64,000 nt of DNA from Octopus vulgaris (taxonomy: Eukaryota). Under the pieces are notes generated by a model. It was not told the DNA's origin, did not search any database, and saw only the letters and a program-made list of their open reading frames with translations. The position numbers and the translations under genes are program-made. Position 1 is the first letter of the stretch. Every line of letters begins with the position of its first letter. The stretch spans positions 49,104,001 through 49,168,000 of the forward strand of contig OX597835.1 in the NCBI GenBank assembly GCA_951406725.2, in the 5' to 3' direction. Shown here piece after piece: positions 21,623 through 61,363 of the stretch.

Positions 21623-22189
21623 TCCCTTCCTACTTCTCTTTCGCTTTCTTCTATTCGTTTTCCTCTCCCTCCTTTCCTTTCTCCCTCCTTTCCTTTCTCC
21701 CTCCTATCATTATACGCATCCACCCTCTTGATCCCCCTCTCCCCGCCCACATAATATCTTCCCCACAGAGGAAGTGCATCTCCAATACCTAAAACCGCAA
21801 AAATTACGTGATTTTCTTTTGAAAATGGAGATTGTGCGGAAACATTTGTAATTTCTAATTAAAGATGTGTTAAAGAATTTTCTTTGTCTCCTTTTCATTT
21901 GGGTTATTTAACATCTGACGTTTGATTCTCTACACCAGATGTACTTTCGGACTTCACGAGAAAATATTTGGAAGATATCATGGACTCTAATGTTATCTAG
22001 AGTAACAATTTAAAAATGATAATAACAGAATCAATAATATAGGCGATTGCAAGCCCCCAAAAAGCATTATATATATATATATACACACAGACACAGCAAA
22101 TGGCTAAGTTCAGTTGGGTATGAAGTTGGGGTATTTCCAGAGAAGCACTCAACCCGAATATTGGGCTATCAACACTGTCAGGATCCAAT

Positions 22190-22608
22190 ACCCTCAAGAG
22201 TTTCAGACCCCACTTCTCTGATTTCTCTATTGATGTTCTCTTTCAGTTGCACCAGGGACTCCGGTTTGTTGACATAAACCCCCTCTTTCAGGCATTCATG
22301 ACTGAAACCGTTTTGCGCCTGGCCATTCAGAGTAGACTTGGCACATGGCCCCAGCAAGATGGGGCAACTGCTCATACCGCAAGAGAAACAATGCAGTTGC
22401 TATGGCAACGCTTTGGAGAGAGAGAATAATCTCCTGCTACGGCAATGTCATCTGGCCTTCATGTTCCCCAGACTTGACTAGCCCGGATTTTTTCTTGTGG
22501 GGATACCTGAAAGAGAGGGTCTACATTAACGAACCGGAGTCCCTGGTGCAACTGAAGGAGAGCATCAATAGAGAAATCAGAGAAGTGGGGTCTGAAACTC
22601 TTGAGGGT
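22190..22608. repeat. 103-bp inverted duplication (22190-22292 vs 22506-22608)
   Basis: Manual alignment 95/103 identical; all 8 differences are transitions. Confidence 0.92.
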
Positions 22609-22834
22609 GTTATGGTTCAAGTTTTGGAAAGAGCACGGGCGTGCGAAGCCGAAATTGGCTGCCATTTAAGCGATGTCATTTTCCATATGTGATGTAGTGG
22701 CGTTGCAAAATTTGACTTGTGCATATTAATTTCCATTATGTCCTTTATATTGCATCAAAATTTCCTGCATTCATTTGTAAAGTTAAGGAAGTTATTGAAA
22801 ATTGAAACCCATCAGTGACTTTTGGGACACCCTG
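22293..22834 (+). mobile_element. Tc1/mariner-superfamily DD41D-type element, 3' half with TIR
   Basis: QQDGATAHTA...WPSCSPDLTSPDFFLWGYLK; 41 residues between the 2nd and 3rd D after correcting a 2-bp AG slip; stop at 22692; TIR ...TTTTGGGACACCCTG then TA. Confidence 0.85.
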
Positions 22835-28408: not shown

Positions 28409-31064
28409 AAGTTGTCGTATTTGGGTAATTTCAACCAATCAACGACGTGTATTCAGTTGAACAAAGCTACTGCTGTTTGCGATTGTAATCGAAGAGGAAC
28501 ACCTTCCGGGTCATTTCCACTAAATGTCACCATTATGTTCTGTTTTATTTTTTGTTTACTGTTTACTGCATATTACACGCTTTTCGGAGTAACCAGTAAA
28601 CATCGAAGAATCAATATCAAGAAGGAAGAAATATAATTTACATATATTTATTCGCGCGCCCGACATTGATGTTTTATCCACACATAAAGCGCACCGGTGT
28701 TTAAAAAACCTATACATCTACGAGTCCGCGGCTATCTTTTTTGTTGTTGACGTGTTTGTACTTTCAAAATGCCTTATCTTACAACTATGAGATGTATTGT
28801 TATTGTTATGATTTTATCTTACTATTTTTATTTTTATTTTATTTTTATTTTATCTAGTTTCAGCTCACGAGCTGTGGCCATGCTGGGGCACCGCCATTTG
28901 GTGTTGCTACATGATTTTACTTCACGAATGCTTTTTAGCAACTGCTATTTGGTGCATGAGAGAGTTTGATGCAGCTGCCTTCATCTGCACCTCCTGCCGT
29001 GAAGTTAGTTCATCTGGGATACCTGACAGGAAGAGATCCAGTTTTATTTTAAAAACATCTGCATCCACCCCATGCAGGTCTCTTAGGTTCTTCGGGAGGA
29101 TATTGAAGAGCTGTGGTCCTCGGAAGCCCAGGCTATCATAGTATCTTGTCCTACATCTTGATGGCAAATTTGGAGTCCTTGGCACTATGCAGTGGCGCCC
29201 AGTTCTACCATTTGTGTAACTCTCGATGCCAAAGTTTGGGACAAGTCCTTTTAGGATCTTCCAGATGTATATTATGGCATATCTTTCTCGCCTACGCTCT
29301 AAGGAATAGAGTCTTAATTCTTGAGTCTTTCCCAGTAGCTTATATGCTGCATAGAGGCTATCTTCTTCGTGTAGCTTCGTTGGATCGCCTCAAGTTCTGT
29401 GATTAATTTGACACTGGTTGGTGACCATAGCTGAGAGCAATAGTCAAAGTGGCTTAGGATAAGTGTCCTCCAGAGGACCATCATGGTTTCCTGGTCTCTT
29501 GTTCTAAAGGTTCTAAGAATCCATCTGGTCAGCCGCCTACATTTCATTTCCAATTTAGCAACATGCACACGAACGGTTGCATCATCACTCATGTAAATAC
29601 CCAGGTCTCGCACTGATTGTGCTTCTGGGATTGCAATCCCTCCAGGTCCCGTGTATTTATTGGGTATTGCATTTAGTTTTGCATGCTGATAGCATAAAGC
29701 TTGAAACTTTTCAGCATTGAACTGCATGCTATTCTTTTCAGCCCACTTGTATACTTTATCCAGCTCACATTGCAGGTGCATAGTGTCTTCAGGGTTCTGT
29801 ATTGCCTGTGAAACTTTTGTATCATCTGTATAACTTGTGATCGTGGCTCTCTGCGAGCTGAGGGCATGTCTGAGAGGGCCATTATAAACAGTAGTGGTCC
29901 CAAAACAGTGCCCTGCGGAACACCGCTCACTATTTGCGTGTTATTGGAGTTGGCCCCATTGGCTACTACCACCTGACTTCTATCCTTCAGAAAGTCATGA
30001 AGCCATGCTCCCAATTTTCCAACTATACCAAGATCACGCAGTTTGTCACATATCATTCAATGATCGACTTTATCAAAGGCCTTTGCAAAGTCGAGATATA
30101 TGACTTCCAGATTTGAGTGGTTGAGCAGTCGTTTCAGCACCCAGTCATAGTGTTGTAGGAGCTGAATTAGGCAGCTTCTTCCTGGTCGGAAACCATGTTG
30201 GGTGTCAGGCAGCAAGTCATTTTCATCAAGGAAGATGATTAGTTTCCTTCTGACTATTCGTTTCATGACCTTGCTGATGTGTGAGGTCAGAGCGATAGGT
30301 CTGTAGTTCTTGGCCTCCGCTCTGCTACCTCCTTTATGAATAGGGCATATTTAACCTTCCTTCAGTTTTCTTGGAAGTTTGCCAGTTGCAAGGAAGCTCT
30401 GAAAGAGGAACTGCAGTGGTCTTGCTAGGACTCTCTTACATACTTTTAGAAGGATTGCTGGGAATCCATCGGGGCCAGTAGGTGAGTTTGTTTTCATTTC
30501 ATCTATAGCCTTTATTACATCGTCTTCCTTTATATTGATGTAATCAATCATCGCTGCCTCTGATTTTACATCTGCAGTGGTAAAGAAGTCAGTTGGATTG
30601 CTGACTTGAAAATGCCCTAGGGGTAGAGTGAAAATACTCTTGAATTTCTCATTTAGTATTTTAATTATCCTCATTGGATAATCAACAACAAACACATTTC
30701 GTCAATATAAAAGTTTTTAATTGATTAAAAATAACATTATCAAAACATGAAGATAAAGTAAAACAAATAGCGGTTTATACACCGGAAAATGCGGTAACTG
30801 TAGTGGCAGTAACAACTTCGCTCGCTGGTTGCTAGTTAATAGTGTAGGAGAGAGGGAAAGAGTGAGGAATGCACGGTGCTGACTAGAAAGGAAGAAAGGA
30901 TAAAGGTGGCATCGTCTTCGCTCGACATACGAATAGAACAGAGTGCTGACATTTAGTAGAGATGACCCGGAAGTTGTTCCTCTTCGATTACTATCGCAAA
31001 CAGCAGTAGCTTTCTTCAACTGAATATACTTCGTTGATTGGTTGAAATTACCCAAATACAACTT
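28409..31064. repeat. ~120-bp inverted repeats (28409-28529 and 30947-31064) bracketing the CR1-like LINE; probable old TIR element
   Basis: GTATTTGGGTAATTTCAACCAATCAACGA...TTCCGGGTCAT...CTAAATGTCA versus its reverse complement; also visible as matching ORF text in 28298+ and 30717-. Confidence 0.8.
28823..30680 (-). mobile_element. CR1-group LINE, 5'-truncated, reverse transcriptase pseudogene
   Basis: GPDGFP; QHGFRPGRSCLIQLL; YLDFAKAFDKVDH; SGVPQGTVLGPLLF; SYTDDTK; FNAEK; DYCSQLWSP; LEAIQR; frameshifts; short 3' UTR and (TAAAA)-type tail. Confidence 0.93.
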
Positions 31065-31652: not shown

Positions 31653-32935
31653 CGAGGAACGTTCAGTAAGTAATGCCCCTGACCCATTTGTAATTGTTTG
31701 ATCTTGCTGAAATTTTGCATGTGCAATTGTTGATATCTCTATAGATTAAGTGGCAAATTACAGCTAATTATGGTTTCTGATTTACAGGTGTTTGAACTGA
31801 GTCAAGTGTGAAATGGAGCCTGTTGAGTGTCGAGCAGTGATCCGGGTTTTGTATTTGAAAGGACGCACACCACGGGAGACTTGTGATGAAATGAAAGTAA
31901 CTTATGGTAATGATGCCCCATCATATGACCTTGTAAAACGCTGGCATCGTGAATTCAAACATGGTCGGAACTCTGTGGAAACAGCCCCCAGATCTGGTCA
32001 CCCTCCTTCTGCCATTGATGAGGCATCTGTCCGTCAAGTTGAGGCTGCCATTTTGGAAGATCGACGCATAACTATTCGCCAAATAGCCCATGAGGTCAAG
32101 ATTAGTACCGGGTCTGTGGAAACTCATTCATGACCATTTGCATATGCAAAAGGTGTGTGCCAGATGGATTCCCATGTTGCTCACACCTTTCCAGAAGCAA
32201 GAACGCGTCGAGTGCTCGAGGATGAATTTGGAGATGTCCCATGAAGATGAGTCAAAATTTTTCAAAAGAATGATTACACAGGATGAAACCTGGGTCCATC
32301 ACGAAGATCCAGAGACCAAAGCCCAGTCAATGCAGTGGAAGCACCGTGACTCACCTCCTCCAAATAAGGCAAGGGTGCAGCCCTCCGCTGGCAAGGTCAT
32401 GCTCACAGTCTTCTGGGACCAGGACGGAGTAGTGATGACAGATTTCCTGGCAAAGGGTACCACAATTACAGGAGCCTATTATGCTTCACTTTTGAGGAAA
32501 TTAAGAGAAGCTATCAAAATCAAGAGGCGGGGCAAGATCAGCAAAGGCATCCTCCTCCTGCAGGACAACGCTCCGGTCCACAACTCGATGGTCGCCAGAT
32601 CAAAAGCACAGGCGTGCGGCTATGAACTCCTCCCCCAACACCTTTCTCTCCTGACCTTGCACCCTCGGATTTTCACCTCTTCCCACCCATGAAGTTGTTT
32701 TTGAAAGGAAAGCGTTTCCCAGATGATGCAGCCTTGATTTCTGAAGTCAGGTCGTGGTTGGAGGACCAAGCTGGGGTCTTCTACAAAAACAGTCTCTAGA
32801 GCTGCATCAAACGATGGGAGAAATGCGTAACTCTGGGTGGTTCCTATGTAAAAGAAGACTAATAACTGTGCCAAGTGTCGTTGCTCTACTGCTATGGGAA
32901 GTGGGTCAGGGGCATTACTTATTGAATGCCCCTCG
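31653..32935 (+). mobile_element. Near-complete mariner (DD34D) transposon, 1283 bp, with TIRs and TA flanks
   Basis: TIRs CGAGGAACGTTCAGTAAGTAATGCCCCTGACCCA and CGAGGGGCATTCAATAAGTAATGCCCCTGACCCA (30/34); TA on both sides. Confidence 0.95.
31813..32862 (+). pseudogene. mariner transposase pseudogene
   Basis: HTH N-terminus, WIPMLL, TQDETW, LLQDNAPVH, FSPDLAPSDFHLF, ...GSYVKED*; two frameshifts (~32125, ~32640) and one premature stop (~32798). Confidence 0.93.
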
Positions 32936-32975
32936 TATATATATATTTATATATATATATATATATATATATGTG

Positions 32976-50680: not shown

Positions 50681-52484
50681 TGAAATTAAGGAATAGATTT
50701 TGCAGCTCTAGCATCATTCCTTCATAGTCAATCAATGAACTTTTCAGCCCATTTTCGTCTTAAAATATTAACAGACTGACTGACAGGCAGACAAACAGAG
50801 ATGAAGAGGAAGGAGAAAGAGAGAGAGAGAGAAATGGAAAGAGCGTAACTACACAAGGAATGTGAAAGATAGGTTTGTATAAATAACTTGTTTCAGATCT
50901 ATTCGGTTTGGCTACCAGCATCAATTTCTGTTCGAATTGATTTCATATTCCGTGTAATGATAGACTTTTATAGTCTAATGAATGACGTGAAAATTATTTT
51001 CGATATAAACAAATAAATAAAGAGTTATTAGCAATTAAAGTTTCAAAATTTTGGGTAACTTTAGCCAATCGTGAGCTACATTCATGCCTGTTTCCATAAT
51101 AAGCCAAACATGAGAACTCTTTTGTCAACTCGTGTTGACAAATATATTCTACGCGATGCAACGTGCGTTGACCCTGTGTTCTGGTGCTTGTGTCCATCAG
51201 TTGCTTGTACCCTGGTCATGAGATGTGCTAAAAATAACAGCTAAATAGGCCTTAAATCAGCTCCGCCCCCATTAAAAATTTTTTGCATAATCGTATGAAT
51301 TCTCAGGTGTAGAATACAAATTCGCGAAAATTTTCTGAAAATTCCAAATTTAAAAAAAAATTATGAGGGGTTACAAGTCGTACGTAAAGCAGAATTTGAT
51401 TTGTTTACAATTTCATATAAAAATATGTGCTATTTTCGGAATGTTAACAACACGTTCACTCACACACAAAATGACAGCTTCCAATCTCTGTTTCTTGACT
51501 GGGTGAATATAATCAAACTTTGAATCGCTACATTTTTAAAAACATTTTTCTGAAATAAATCCAGCAATTCAGCTTGGAAACGTATATTAATGTGCCAAAT
51601 TTAAAACTTTTCGATAAACTTTAATTTTTGAAATGCTGGCAGCCAAACCAACTATTTCAATCATTAGACTGCGGCCATGCTGAGGCACCACCTCCAAGAA
51701 TTTTTAGTCGAATGAATCCACTCCAGTACTATTCTTTTATTAAGCCTGGGGTCTATCGGTCACTTTATCAGTCACACACACACACACATTGTCGGGGGTC
51801 GGCCCAAGGTTATAGTAGAAGACATTTGCTCAAAGTTGAGTAACGCTTCCACGCTTAGATTTGTAAGCTATGATAAGAATAACACTGGTCAACAAAGAAT
51901 TTATCTCAAGGAAAAGAATACCTTTATCTGGTATGTTTTGGCATGCAGAATTCAAAAATAATGTCAAATTATCTGTATCACCCACAGTTTCTCTGTTCCA
52001 TGATATCCCTCTCAGTTCCTGTTATGTGGGCTAAATTTCAATTAAGCTGTTGAAATGTAAAGCTAACGGTTTAATAAATACTCCTAATTAAAATTTTTAT
52101 GAATAGAATTAACCTAGTAAAATCATAAATCCAGCTATTTGAGTCAATGAGTCCCAAAAATATATGAAATGAAAAATATGTAAAAACACTAACACACAAA
52201 AAAATTAAAGCAAAAGAATTTCGTGGTGTGAAGAATAAAGTGTGAAAAATCAACAAAGACAATAGCGGCACAAACAACATTGAACCACAGTGTGTGGTTG
52301 CCATGCTAACGAGCTGCTAATACCATTCTATCTGTTGATTGGCTAAAATTACCCAAATTTCCCAAATAAAATAATTGGTTGATCGTAACCAAAATTCAGA
52401 GTTGTATCGATAGACCAAAATTGAAAAGAATCTGAGCAAAATTAAGTGGGGGGCTGATTTTGCGAATGAGAAAGACTAGATCCA

Positions 52485-52514
52485 GCAAGAAATCTTGAAA
52501 TAATCTGAATAATG
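52485..52514 (+). mobile_element. Extreme 3' end of the RLE-type LINE family
   Basis: GCAAGAAATCTTGAAATAATCTGAATAATG then (ACAT)n, same end as 53590-53620 and 58992-59022. Confidence 0.7.
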
Positions 52515-52730
52515 ACATACATACATACATACATACATACATACATACATACATACATACATACACATACATACATACATACATACATACATACATACAT
52601 ACATACATACATACATACATACATACATACATACATACATACATACATACATACATACATGCATGCATACATACATACACATACATACATACATACATAC
52701 ATACATACATACATACATACACACACACAT

Positions 52731-52761
<31 letters not shown>

Positions 52762-52836
52762 TACATACATACATACATACATACATACATACATACATAC
52801 ATACATACATACACACATACATACATACATACATAT

Positions 52837-52867
<31 letters not shown>

Positions 52868-52970
52868 CATACATACATACATACATACATACATACATAC
52901 ATACATACATACATACATACATACATACATACATACATACATACATACATACATACATACATACATACAT
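52515..52970. repeat. (ACAT)n microsatellite
   Basis: Direct reading. Confidence 0.97.
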
Positions 52971-53620
52971 CATAAAAGAAATAAAAACCCACAGTATGGT
53001 AGAAGCCATTGTCCCTCATAATAAAAAGGAGTACTGGTGGAATGTCCCAGTGAAGATCTCAATAAAATGTAAGCACAACAGACCTGATATAATGATTTGG
53101 GATTGAGAAGAGAAACTGTGCACAGTTGAGGAAATTAACTGCTCAGTGAATGTTAACATAAAACTGAAGATCAGTGAAAAAGAAAATACCTACGCTGAAC
53201 TATCTGCAGTCACTCTATCCAGATTACAAGCTCAGGTTTATACCTGTAATTACTGGAGCCTTGGGATATGTAACACTGCCTAAATACCAATGTTGAGAAA
53301 CTAGGCTTCTCAAAACCAGAAAAGAGGAAGCTAAATGGAAGACTACAGATTCAATCCGTCATTGGAACTGTAGAGATCTGTAATACTTTCCCGAAGTTTA
53401 TCATTTAAAAATATAAGAGCATGTCTATATATGCAACTACATGCATGAGAATACATAGATAAAGCAAAACATACAAATCCACACATATACATACATGCAT
53501 ACATACAAACAAAAATACCCAGTTGTTGATGTTGAAATTCCAATGAAGGAGCCTTGAATCTAGGTTAGAAACCGGTTCTTTCTCTATTGGCAAGAAATCT
53601 TGAAATAAAACTGAACAAGG
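52971..53620 (+). mobile_element. RLE-type (R4/Dong/NeSL-like) non-LTR retrotransposon, 3' fragment
   Basis: YWWNVPV..KCKHNRPDIMIWD*EEKLCTVEEI..EKENTYAEL..FIPVITGALGYV..GTVEICNTFPKFII* (PD-(D/E)xK endonuclease, stop 53406-53408) plus 3' UTR. Confidence 0.8.
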
Positions 53621-54518
53621 ACATACATGCATGCAAAACATTTACACACACATACACACAAAAAACATACATGTAAGCATACATACATACATACATACAT
53701 ACACATACATACATAAACACACACATACATACATATATACACACACACATAATACATACATACATACACACATAATACATACATATATACACACACACAT
53801 AATACATACATACATACATACATACATACACACATAATACATACATATATACATACACACATAATACATACATATATACACACACATATAATACATACAT
53901 ACACACATACATAATACATACATACATACATACACACACATACATACATACATACATACACACATAATACATACATATATACACACACACATAATACATA
54001 CATACACACATAATACATACATATATATACATACACACATAATACATACATATATACACACACATATAATACATACATACACACATACATAATACATACA
54101 TACATACACACACATACATACATACATACATACATACATACACACACATACATACATACATATATACACACACATAATACATACATATATACACACACAC
54201 ATATAATACATACATATATACACACACACATACATACATACACACACATAATACATACATACATACACACACATACATACATACTTACATACATATATAC
54301 ACACACACATACATACACACACATACATACATACTTACATACATATATACACACACACATAATACATACATGCATACATACATACACACACACATACATA
54401 CATACATATATACACACACACATATACATACATACATACACATACATACATACATACATACATACATACATACATACATACATACATACATACATACATA
54501 CATACATACATACATACA
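53621..54518. repeat. Complex (ACAT)/(AC)/(ATA) array with recurring ~25-bp higher-order units
   Basis: Recurring CACATAATACATACATATATACAC-like blocks. Confidence 0.9.
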
Positions 54519-55929
54519 TTATTTCTTGTCTCATTCACACCCTGAACACAGAGTTATTAGTCTGTCAACGCCCTGCGGCCCGTCAAAAGGACACGCCAAA
54601 AATAACAAATGTTTTGGTGATTTCGCTCCGGCCTTTTTGACCTTTGACACAGCTCGACGCTAAAGAAACATGTAAAATGACAGACGGACACACAGACAGA
54701 CGGACGGACGGACACGGTTGTCAGACAAAACAACAAGTGTTATGATGACCACCGGAAATGTAACGAACGCCGCCGATATTTCACAGCTACATGAAGGAGA
54801 GGGTGCTGAGGGAGGTGTGGGAAGAGGAGGTAAAGCGCGGGAGGCGTGGAGAGAGGAGGCGGAGGGGAAGTAGTAGCAAGATTGGGAATGTGTGGGGGGA
54901 GGGGAGTTGAGAGGAAATTGCGAGAATGAAGTAGAAAGGGGTGAGGAGTTGGTTGATGGGTGGTGGTGGTGGTGGTGATGATAATGGAGGGGGATGCAGA
55001 GAAAAATGATGAGAAGTGCTGTAGGTGTGGGGGGGAGGAGTGACGGGTAATAGGTGAAGGGGTAGGAGGTAAAGGGGAGGTGCGAGAGAGATGCGGCAGG
55101 AGTAGGAAATAAACAACAACCCCGACCGCACCCCGAAAATCTGCCGCAGTTGTCTTTGGTAGGGGAAGACGGTGAGGGTTAGAGAGAATAAAAAGCACTG
55201 CCATAGTCTCCATCTACCCGTTTCGTCACCCGCTACCACCCCACACTCCCACCCCACCATGTCACCCAATTGGTAAATCCATTAAAAGGTCAAATAGAGA
55301 CAAATTTTTTTTTAAAGAATGACCGAGTAGTTGAGGGAGGGAAACGCAAAGGTGGGGGGGGTATAATTTCGCACCCTATAAACACAGCCACACACACTCG
55401 CGCGCGCGTGCGCGCAAATACATACACACATGCGCGCACACACAAAAGCATGTACGCACGAACACCCGCCTAATTTTCCCGACTGTCTTTCAGATCCCGA
55501 CAACAAGAGCAGAGATAAAGACCACTAACCACCGCCAACACCAGCACAATCCATCAAACCTATCTCTATGTGTGAGTGCAAAGATCTGCTAAAAACAACA
55601 GCCAAGAACCTTGATATTTTTTGGTTATCTCAACCCCATTAAAAATTGGGTTATTTCCCTCGTTTTTCGAGAGATATCGGTACTTTTGGTCATGTCCCTC
55701 ATCTAAAAAAATGTTTAACCCTCAATTAAAAAAAAAATTTAATTAATAAGCATGAAAACGGAAAAAAATTAAACATCTTATTGAAATCTAATAACATTTT
55801 CATAACAAATCATAGCATATCTATTGAGCGGGGGGGGGCAAAAGTCAACAATGTGTTGAAGTATTGAATCAAAAGGCTCCAACTCTTTTAATCCAATCTC
55901 TTGTCAAAATCTCCTTTACTGTGTCGAGA

Positions 55930-58716: not shown

Positions 58717-59022
58717 TAGGCTTCTCAAAACCAGAAAGGAGAAAGGTAACAGATCCAATCCATCACTGGAGCTCTAAAAGTCTGTACATCTTTCCAGAAG
58801 TTTATCATTTAAATATATTCATGAGCATGTCTAGACATGCATGAGAAAGCATGCAGAAAACATATCTGCGCATCCACTGACTCGAAATATTGCACATATA
58901 CTTGCATACATGCAAAAATACCTTTTTGATGCTGTTGAAATTGCAGTGAATGACCTTGGATCTAGGTTAGAAACCGGTTCTTTCTCTGATGGCAAGAAAT
59001 CTTTAAATAAAACTGAATAATG
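58717..59022 (+). mobile_element. RLE-type LINE 3' fragment (same family as 52971-53620), followed by (ACAT)n to ~59210
   Basis: TAGGCTTCTCAAAACCAGAAA...AAGTTTATCATTTAA...TCTAGGTTAGAAACCGGTTCTTTCTCT...GGCAAGAAATCTT.AAATAAAACTGAATAATG. Confidence 0.82.
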
Positions 59023-60119
59023 ACATACATACAAACATACATAAATGCACGCATGCATAATACATACATACATACATGGATGCATACATACATACATACA
59101 AACATACATGCATACATACATACATACATACATACATACATACATACATACATACATACATACATACATACATACATACATACATACATACATACATACA
59201 CTCACACATACATAAGCTTTCTTCACTTAGGAATGTTTACAAAATGCTTCATCCGCCAAGTGCTTCTGTTCAGAATAACTGAACTGTCTACATTTGTTTA
59301 TATATATACATTTAGCACAGTTTATTTTGATACACCTAGTATTTATGTATTCAGAGCGTATACTAGCGGTGTGTATAATTTATACAACAGTGTACTCACC
59401 ACATACAGCAAACCAAGCATGGGGTGGCGGGCATAAAGGGTTTGGATGATGTTGGTGGCGTTGTTATTTAGCCCCAGGCCGGCAATGATCGAGAAGACTC
59501 GTGAACGAAGACATAGTCATCTCATCTTTTTGATCCAGAACTATTCTATCCTCTTAAATGTCTTTTCTATTTTAAGACGGTACGGAACGATTTGGGGAGG
59601 TTTTAGCTGTCATTTTTAGCATATCAAGTGATCAGGTAGACAGACGTTTCATCCGTCGACACGTTGGGGTTGTGAATGGTACAAGCAGTGGTGGTTAATG
59701 GGGCGATGGTTGATGTTAGCTGTGTAGTGTGGTGATGGTGGTGGTGGTGGTGGTGGCGATGGTACAAGAATAATTTTTAAAATACTCAGCACAAGATGGT
59801 GCCGCTGAAATGCTTCATCTGTGTATAATAATGTGTATGTGTGATTGTATGTATGCATGTATGTATGTATGTATATATGCATGTATGTATAAGTCTGTAT
59901 GTATATGTGTGTGATTATGTATGTGAGCTCAAGCCTACTCAGCTAAAGGTGGGTCAGCAGAATCGTCAGCCAATCTGGTAAACTGCTCGGCAGCCTTGTG
60001 TTCGAGCTCTTTATACTCTGGGTTCAAATGCCACCGAGATCAATTGTTGCCTTTAATCCCCACCAGTCTGCCAGTTGAATGCCTTAAGAAGGAGGAGGAG
60101 GAGGTAGAGGGGGGATAAA

Positions 60120-60350: not shown

Positions 60351-61363
<1,013 letters not shown>

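Follow-up and report, generated by a model that had tools for sequence, protein, structure and literature searches.

A restriction-like endonuclease retrotransposon family tied to (ACAT)n microsatellites in Octopus vulgaris

A lineage of R4/Dong-like non-LTR retrotransposons with a restriction-like endonuclease (RLE) probably targets tetranucleotide microsatellites, and one of its families probably inserts by preference into (ACAT)n arrays. Copies of this family are found in a 64,000-nucleotide stretch of the Octopus vulgaris genome (contig OX597835.1, positions 49,104,001 to 49,168,000), here called the window. An earlier note, made from the letters of the window, had proposed either a tetranucleotide-targeting or an ACAT-tail-generating RLE element. 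Targeting is favoured over pure tail-making because 5′ junctions to ACAT occur at many truncation points and because complete relatives lie between arrays of the same repeat. The identification of an RLE element and its tie to (ACAT)n, also made in that note, are supported well beyond the window, both by contigs from public sequencing runs and by relatives in metagenomes.

Family copies and ACAT arrays in the window

The features of the window to which the text refers are as follows, with strand.

1506-1698, minus: fragment of coding sequence from a diverged member of the wider lineage, 5′ limit uncertain (1677-1698), E 1.7e-15 over 1677-1506
52485-52514, plus: copy 1, very short and 5′-truncated, the final 30 bp of the element, E 1.6e-6
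52515-52974, plus: (ACAT)n array, 95% pure, the 3′ flank of copy 1 and the 5′ flank of copy 2
52975-53411, plus: copy 2, broken C-terminal coding part from the RLE domain to the frame end, with an RPD..E..K pattern
53412-53620, plus: copy 2, 3′ UTR, containing an ACAT-like tract (about 53479-53519)
53552-53575, plus: conserved motif CCTTG-N15-CCGG with a hairpin core, in the 3′ UTR of copy 2
53621-54519, plus: ACAT-rich array after copy 2, degenerate at first, with a 27-bp period midway and pure at the distal end
58717-59022, plus: copy 3, 5′-truncated, frame end and 3′ UTR, with a unique 5′ flank and the hairpin motif at 58954
59023-59214, plus: (ACAT)n array after copy 3, 88% pure
60353-61253, plus: fragment of a second RLE LINE, not a family member and used as a control, with a long (GAA)n array on its 5′ side and about 110 bp of (AAT)n on its 3′ side

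The three family pieces (52485-52514, 52975-53620 and 58717-59022) share one 3′ end base, and ACAT units follow directly after each. Coordinates and arrays thus bear out the common 3′ end with direct ACAT continuation that the earlier note had described for copies at 52485, 52971 and 58717. The pieces are dead, 5′-truncated copies of an RLE non-LTR retrotransposon. The frame of copy 2 matches full-length non-LTR proteins in their C-terminal RLE region (E 1.5e-24 to protein P0004) and is broken by one in-frame stop and two frameshifts; a Pfam search with this coding piece gave no match. The 30-bp piece of copy 1 is real family sequence: its local score is 41, whereas the best of 3,447 other segments of the window scores 27. 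Copies 2 and 3, the long ones, are identical at 253 of 300 aligned columns (84%), with 35 gap columns, and are therefore old. No target-site duplication was found around the two copies that have unique 5′ flanks.

Copy 2 has (ACAT)n on both sides, as had been stated, but its start is at 52975 and not at 52971. The array ends at 52974, and the overhanging ends of run contigs before 52975 give upstream family sequence, which places the truncation point of copy 2 at 52975. The copies at 52485 and 58717 both lack a 5′ repeat, as was claimed for two copies. A sense ACAT 20-mer with up to two mismatches lies on one given side of about 1.6% of window positions. The probability by chance of ACAT tails on all three copies is about 4e-6, and that of a 5′ array on one of the three is about 0.03-0.06. 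The 5′ association is therefore borderline, and the window alone cannot separate target from tail. Three of its 12 ACAT arrays follow a family 3′ end and hold 1,526 of 3,120 bp (49%), in a window that was chosen for this feature. The suggestion of the earlier note that the element could help explain how common the repeat is here is a conjecture. Tandem repeats mask 26% of the window (Tandem Repeats Finder).

Some features of the repeats themselves should be mentioned. The 27-bp higher-order period in the ACAT array runs over 53650-54440, with about 32 copies. The ACAT-like tract at 53479-53519 in the 3′ UTR varies strongly between copies and resembles a proto-microsatellite carried by the element.

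The earlier note also pointed to a diverged relative at 1680 with an ACAT-like 5′ flank. The relative is a genuine diverged fragment (1506-1698), but the flank was not confirmed; it falls inside the envelope of the coding alignment, which extends to 1698, and may be coding sequence. No 3′ UTR match, family motif or ACAT tail accompanies the fragment. On these grounds it was dropped as evidence for an ACAT association.

Junctions and relatives beyond the window

Parts of the segment 50500-59100 are present in 20 of 24 listed public runs, under five organism labels. Contigs of four runs (organisms A, B, D and E) were aligned to 52951-53670 at 80% likeness. The matching contigs number 31,295, 27,023, 16,811 and 14,944, which is not a copy number, but the family is very abundant. 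In all four runs, contig ends past 53609 and 53632 continue from the element end into ACAT units (among the best 24 of 2,778 rows), with 157 and 186 contigs in run X1, 154 and 214 in X4, 165 in X8, and 80 and 124 in X14. Agreement in these best 24 of 2,778 rows is 0.44-0.70 and drops as the arrays diverge.

On the 5′ side, an ACAT piece is the starting side in 13 of the best 15 of 442 joints, where the joints have a 20-letter side at 80% likeness, a setting flagged as weak by the method. Seven ACAT joints among these best 15 lie upstream of the internal ACAT-like tract, and are represented by 24, 35, 17 and 25 contigs across the four runs. Two further ACAT joints, at 53070 and 53233, are among the best 12 of 755 rows of a second joint listing. 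Not counted were two joints in the tail and four at 53530-53577, because the tail or the ACAT-like tract of the element itself can explain them, and two similar rows of the second listing. At least nine different truncation points are thereby joined directly to ACAT across the four runs, some of them merged at small deletions of the window copy; junctions to ACAT are favoured by a reference that included the repeat, and the counts have no denominator of 5′ junctions to unique DNA. The run contigs do not reach what precedes each 5′ array. A single A stands between the joint sides in five of the best 12 of 755 rows, which fits an array broken behind ...ACATA, as is seen at 52974. In several joints, read by eye, one or two bases are shared with the repeat.

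Metagenome contigs were scanned with a profile, and 13 of the 70 candidates were kept as loci, with about 50% identity to protein P0003. In ten of these loci an end of the element borders on (ACAT)n or (ACTT)n, and in none of the 13 does it border on (TAA)n. The loci are divided as follows.

ACAT-flanked: L007, L009, L012
ACTT-flanked: L001, L002, L003, L004, L006, L008, L013 (L002 and L003 are one family)
No element end shown: L005, L010, L011

The natural 5′ end is reached in five loci, and an array is present there in all five. All three complete elements, L004, L007 and L009, have open frames (1153, 1179 and 1217 aa, stop to stop) and carry the same tetranucleotide on the same strand on both sides, which is (ACAT)n in two and (ACTT)n in one. 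It should be noted that these metagenome contigs are assemblies of multi-copy elements, and that those of L004, L006, L007 and L009 stop inside arrays. In L013, whose truncation point lies within the RLE, an ACTT array is present 5′ of the element and no more than about one unit 3′ of it, and the 400 bp before the 5′ array of L001 contain no family 3′ motif. Thus insertion into existing arrays fits the flanks of L013 and the upstream DNA of L001 better than does tail-making. From GC content and divergence, the hosts of the metagenome loci are probably other animals.

A 22-base 3′ UTR pattern had no match in metagenome or prokaryote genome contigs, protein scans gave no relatives among 26 candidates in viral contigs and 19 in genome contigs, and the ESM Atlas returned generic reverse transcriptase clusters only, mostly without taxa.

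Both long window copies carry the motif CCTTG-N15-CCGG 35-70 bases upstream of the 3′ end, as do all eight loci in which the 3′ end is reached. Its six-pair stem, in a model that was read from the same sequences used to score pairing, is paired in 50 of 54 cells and displays 15 compensatory changes. None of 500 shuffles scored as high, and with slid partners the value was 22-48%. Two of the six pairs are broken in the window copies, and single-sequence folding of the hairpin was no better than that of shuffles. The hairpin marks the ACAT/ACTT lineage and, by analogy, is likely an RNA signal bound by the element protein.

The following observations concern the metagenome loci individually. The ACTT-linked loci (L001, L002, L003, L004, L006, L008 and L013) represent several distinct families, with about 65-70% DNA identity. 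An ATA run of L008 falls where L001 and L004 encode an Asn-rich linker. The 5′ ends of the loci align poorly. A short motif, GGAYGTG, is common to the 5′ ends of L007 (117-240), L009 (100-235), L004 and L006, and L007 and L009 also have in common, at their 5′ ends, blocks of complementarity that might fold into a pseudoknot, with no Rfam match. At the 5′ junction of the complete element L009, positions 78-109 contain a 16-bp direct duplication like that of a restarted second-strand priming.

Protein anatomy, lineage placement and known elements

The proteins of L004, L007 and L009 are encoded in a single frame with RVT_1 above cut-off, a weak zf-RVT and a C-terminal RLE, and of these the window copies retain the RLE end only. 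No APE domain was found in the three by Pfam; the RLE pattern is present at the C terminus instead. The N terminus of L007, the one locus modelled, forms three helices with a pLDDT of about 95 over residues 21-70. In a structural comparison, SANT/Myb folds come first among the matches to this model, with a middling best Z of 7.3 (rmsd 2.0 over 72 residues), and a Foldseek search with the model gave no match under E 0.001.

In a tree of the RLE region, the window copy falls with L007, L009 and L012 in a clade of ten rows (90/94). This ACAT clade, which is not starred in any tree, is nested in a 100/99 clade with ACTT loci. A second RLE-region tree agrees more weakly, with the window copy and the ACAT loci in a wider group at 83/92. 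A 100/100 branch separates the ACAT/ACTT lineage from named arthropod proteins and from the second RLE LINE of the window at 60353-61253. The latter groups with arthropod R4/Dong-like proteins, and the genome thus contains two RLE lineages that differ in their repeat. In the reverse transcriptase tree, with two of 33 rows skipped, Argonauta hians protein P0198 is placed with L007 and L009 (SH-aLRT 95), apart from the ACTT loci (89); P0198 lacks the C terminus, and its connection to the window family is indirect. All trees were midpoint-rooted and contain no reference elements or outgroups, and rows known as proteins alone carry no flank information. Outside the lineage, the nearest named matches come from arthropods (Pediculus, Tribolium, Colias), and identity between the lineage and the arthropod R4/Dong-like group is about 30-34%. 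The ACAT family would likely be a formal member of the R4 clade.

R2 elements target 28S rDNA and have N-terminal zinc fingers. R2 proteins are the best solved-structure matches of L007 (E 3.6e-27), and R2 is the model for nicking, priming and template jumping. Unlike R2, no N-terminal zinc fingers are evident by eye in L007 or L009.

Dong inserts in (TAA)n (PMC7998251; PMC3812793). R4/Dong elements have an N-terminal SANT/Myb-like domain and no N-terminal zinc fingers, and it is argued, though no more than argued, that the Myb-like domain sets the target (PMC7998251). The family described here, with its relatives, resembles Dong in its microsatellite site, in having one frame that encodes a reverse transcriptase, a zinc knuckle and a C-terminal RLE, and perhaps in a predicted N-terminal SANT/Myb-like domain. 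It differs in the repeat, which is (ACAT)n or (ACTT)n and not (TAA)n; ACAT follows the 3′ end in all three window copies and in the run contigs. The Dong/R4 5′ end carries a self-cleaving HDV-like ribozyme (PMC3774820). An Rfam search of six of the 13 loci detected no ribozyme and just repeat-driven matches below gathering scores. Dong-R4 elements are nearly confined to cephalopods among surveyed molluscs (PMC10294476), and in Octopus vulgaris they comprise 51 families and 92.7 Mb, with five recently active families (PMC13282606); the part of the latter paper that was covered does not name their target.

Other elements also use microsatellites. The APE-type elements WaldoAg1, WaldoAg2 and WaldoFs1 target ACAY repeats, and further targets are AC for Mino, TC for Kibi and TTC for Koshi (PMC3812793). 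The RLE element Togen is specific for (TG)n, and some HERO families are microsatellite-specific (PMC4640811). Togen and these HERO families, compared by description alone, are like the present family in being RLE elements with microsatellite specificity, but have a different repeat. The ACAT family shares with Waldo only a position in ACAY repeats; Waldo uses an APE endonuclease, whereas the ACAT family has a C-terminal RLE, and the common ACAT target would be convergent. Thus the family works like Dong and has the target of Waldo, yet is neither Dong proper nor Waldo.

The author of the earlier note knew of no ACAT-specific family. ACAY targeting is already described for APE-type Waldo (PMC3812793). 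The literature covered (including PMC8967140, PMC9115989, PMC5786205, PMC3124438 and PMC5035012, with Repbase and Dfam outside its scope) yielded no RLE elements for which ACAT or ACTT is given as the target. The ACAT target is already known, from Waldo, and its use by an RLE element may be new. No report of (ACTT)n as a target was found in the same literature, and neither the 3′ UTR motif nor the word Dong had a match in four supplementary files of PMC9115989.

Target or tail

If ACAT arrays are the target, the steps of insertion can be proposed from R2 and Dong biology. The element protein would bind its own RNA at the 3′ UTR hairpin, and the N-terminal SANT/Myb-like domain together with the RLE would recognise the array and cut its ATGT strand. 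Reverse transcription would start from this nick, and ACAT units added to the RNA by read-through might assist the priming. Microhomologies of one or two bases would then serve to join the end of the cDNA to the upstream repeat. Copies without a 5′ repeat could be insertions at an array edge or at a short ACAT seed, or could have lost the upstream target at the 5′ join. Slippage would afterwards lengthen or erode the arrays. The stack at 52485-54519 would represent two events, with copy 2 inserted later into the array behind copy 1.

Counting against targeting, two of the three window copies have no 5′ ACAT, and the remaining one sits behind the 3′ end of another copy. Another explanation is that ACAT is merely a tail, a copy of the RNA end or a product of reverse transcriptase stutter, that insertion sites are not ACAT-specific, and that stacks result from template jumping in one event. 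It has in its favour the unique 5′ flanks of two of the three window copies and a 3′ tie to ACAT that, in the window, is far stronger than the 5′ tie. The lone stacked case also has the exact layout of a jump product, and R2 proteins do jump templates to give head-to-tail tandems (PMC11371274). However, jumping would have to be very frequent to produce 5′ ACAT junctions at nine or more places in four runs, and an array precedes all five of the natural 5′ ends. L013 has the array 5′ and almost none 3′, and no family 3′ motif lies before the 5′ array of L001. Tail-making with jumping is thus considered rather unlikely.

It is also conceivable that insertion is random, with an ACAT tail, and that copies have built up passively in repeat-rich DNA, with later deletion or conversion between arrays. 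Passive build-up has been proposed for Drosophila Waldo-A and -B near CA repeats (PMC3812793), and the window, with 26% tandem repeat and old copies (84% alike), would be a suitable place for it. Nevertheless the flanks consist of one matching repeat on the matching strand and not of the commoner AT or AC repeats, intact and presumably young relatives are already found between arrays, and separate families among the loci keep either ACAT or ACTT. This explanation seems improbable, more so than that of a tail with jumping. Targeting of ACAT arrays remains the preferred reading. A mixed mode, in which short seeds are targeted and then extended, is compatible with all data, and in this way the family could raise the ACAT content of the genome.

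A wider proposal is put forward only tentatively, and is rather doubtful as a whole. The elements could represent an undescribed RLE lineage, present in several animals, in which one SANT/Myb domain reads tetranucleotides and the target has switched by a single base (ACTT versus ACAT), with an ACAT branch that not only uses arrays but also seeds new ones, and to which much of the (ACAT)n of the host would be due.

What lets a site-specific retrotransposon switch from one target to another is still to be explained. The present lineage offers sister families, about 45-50% alike, whose four-base repeats differ at a single base. Since several of these families have intact frames and defined ends, domain swaps and nicking assays would be simple. 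RLE proteins are being mined as gene-insertion tools (PMC13580325), for which multi-copy non-coding targets are useful. For cephalopod genomics, if the targeting is true, one abundant Dong-R4 family would gain a target and be linked to ACAT microsatellites.

Minor observations were made on the sequences at and near the family copies. The last family bases (53611-53620, 52505-52514 and 59013-59022) include two AAT units before the ACAT run, which, as a speculation, may have been left from a time when the target was TAA. Immediately upstream of the 30-bp copy, at 52437-52479 on the plus strand, a hairpin followed by CTAG may resemble a Helitron 3′ end. Elsewhere in the window there are a broken APE-type LINE with reverse transcriptase similarity at 28922-30701 on the minus strand, two plus-strand segments (22124-22692 and 31801-32946) whose frames, by eye, resemble mariner transposases, and several SINE-like families that recur across the window.
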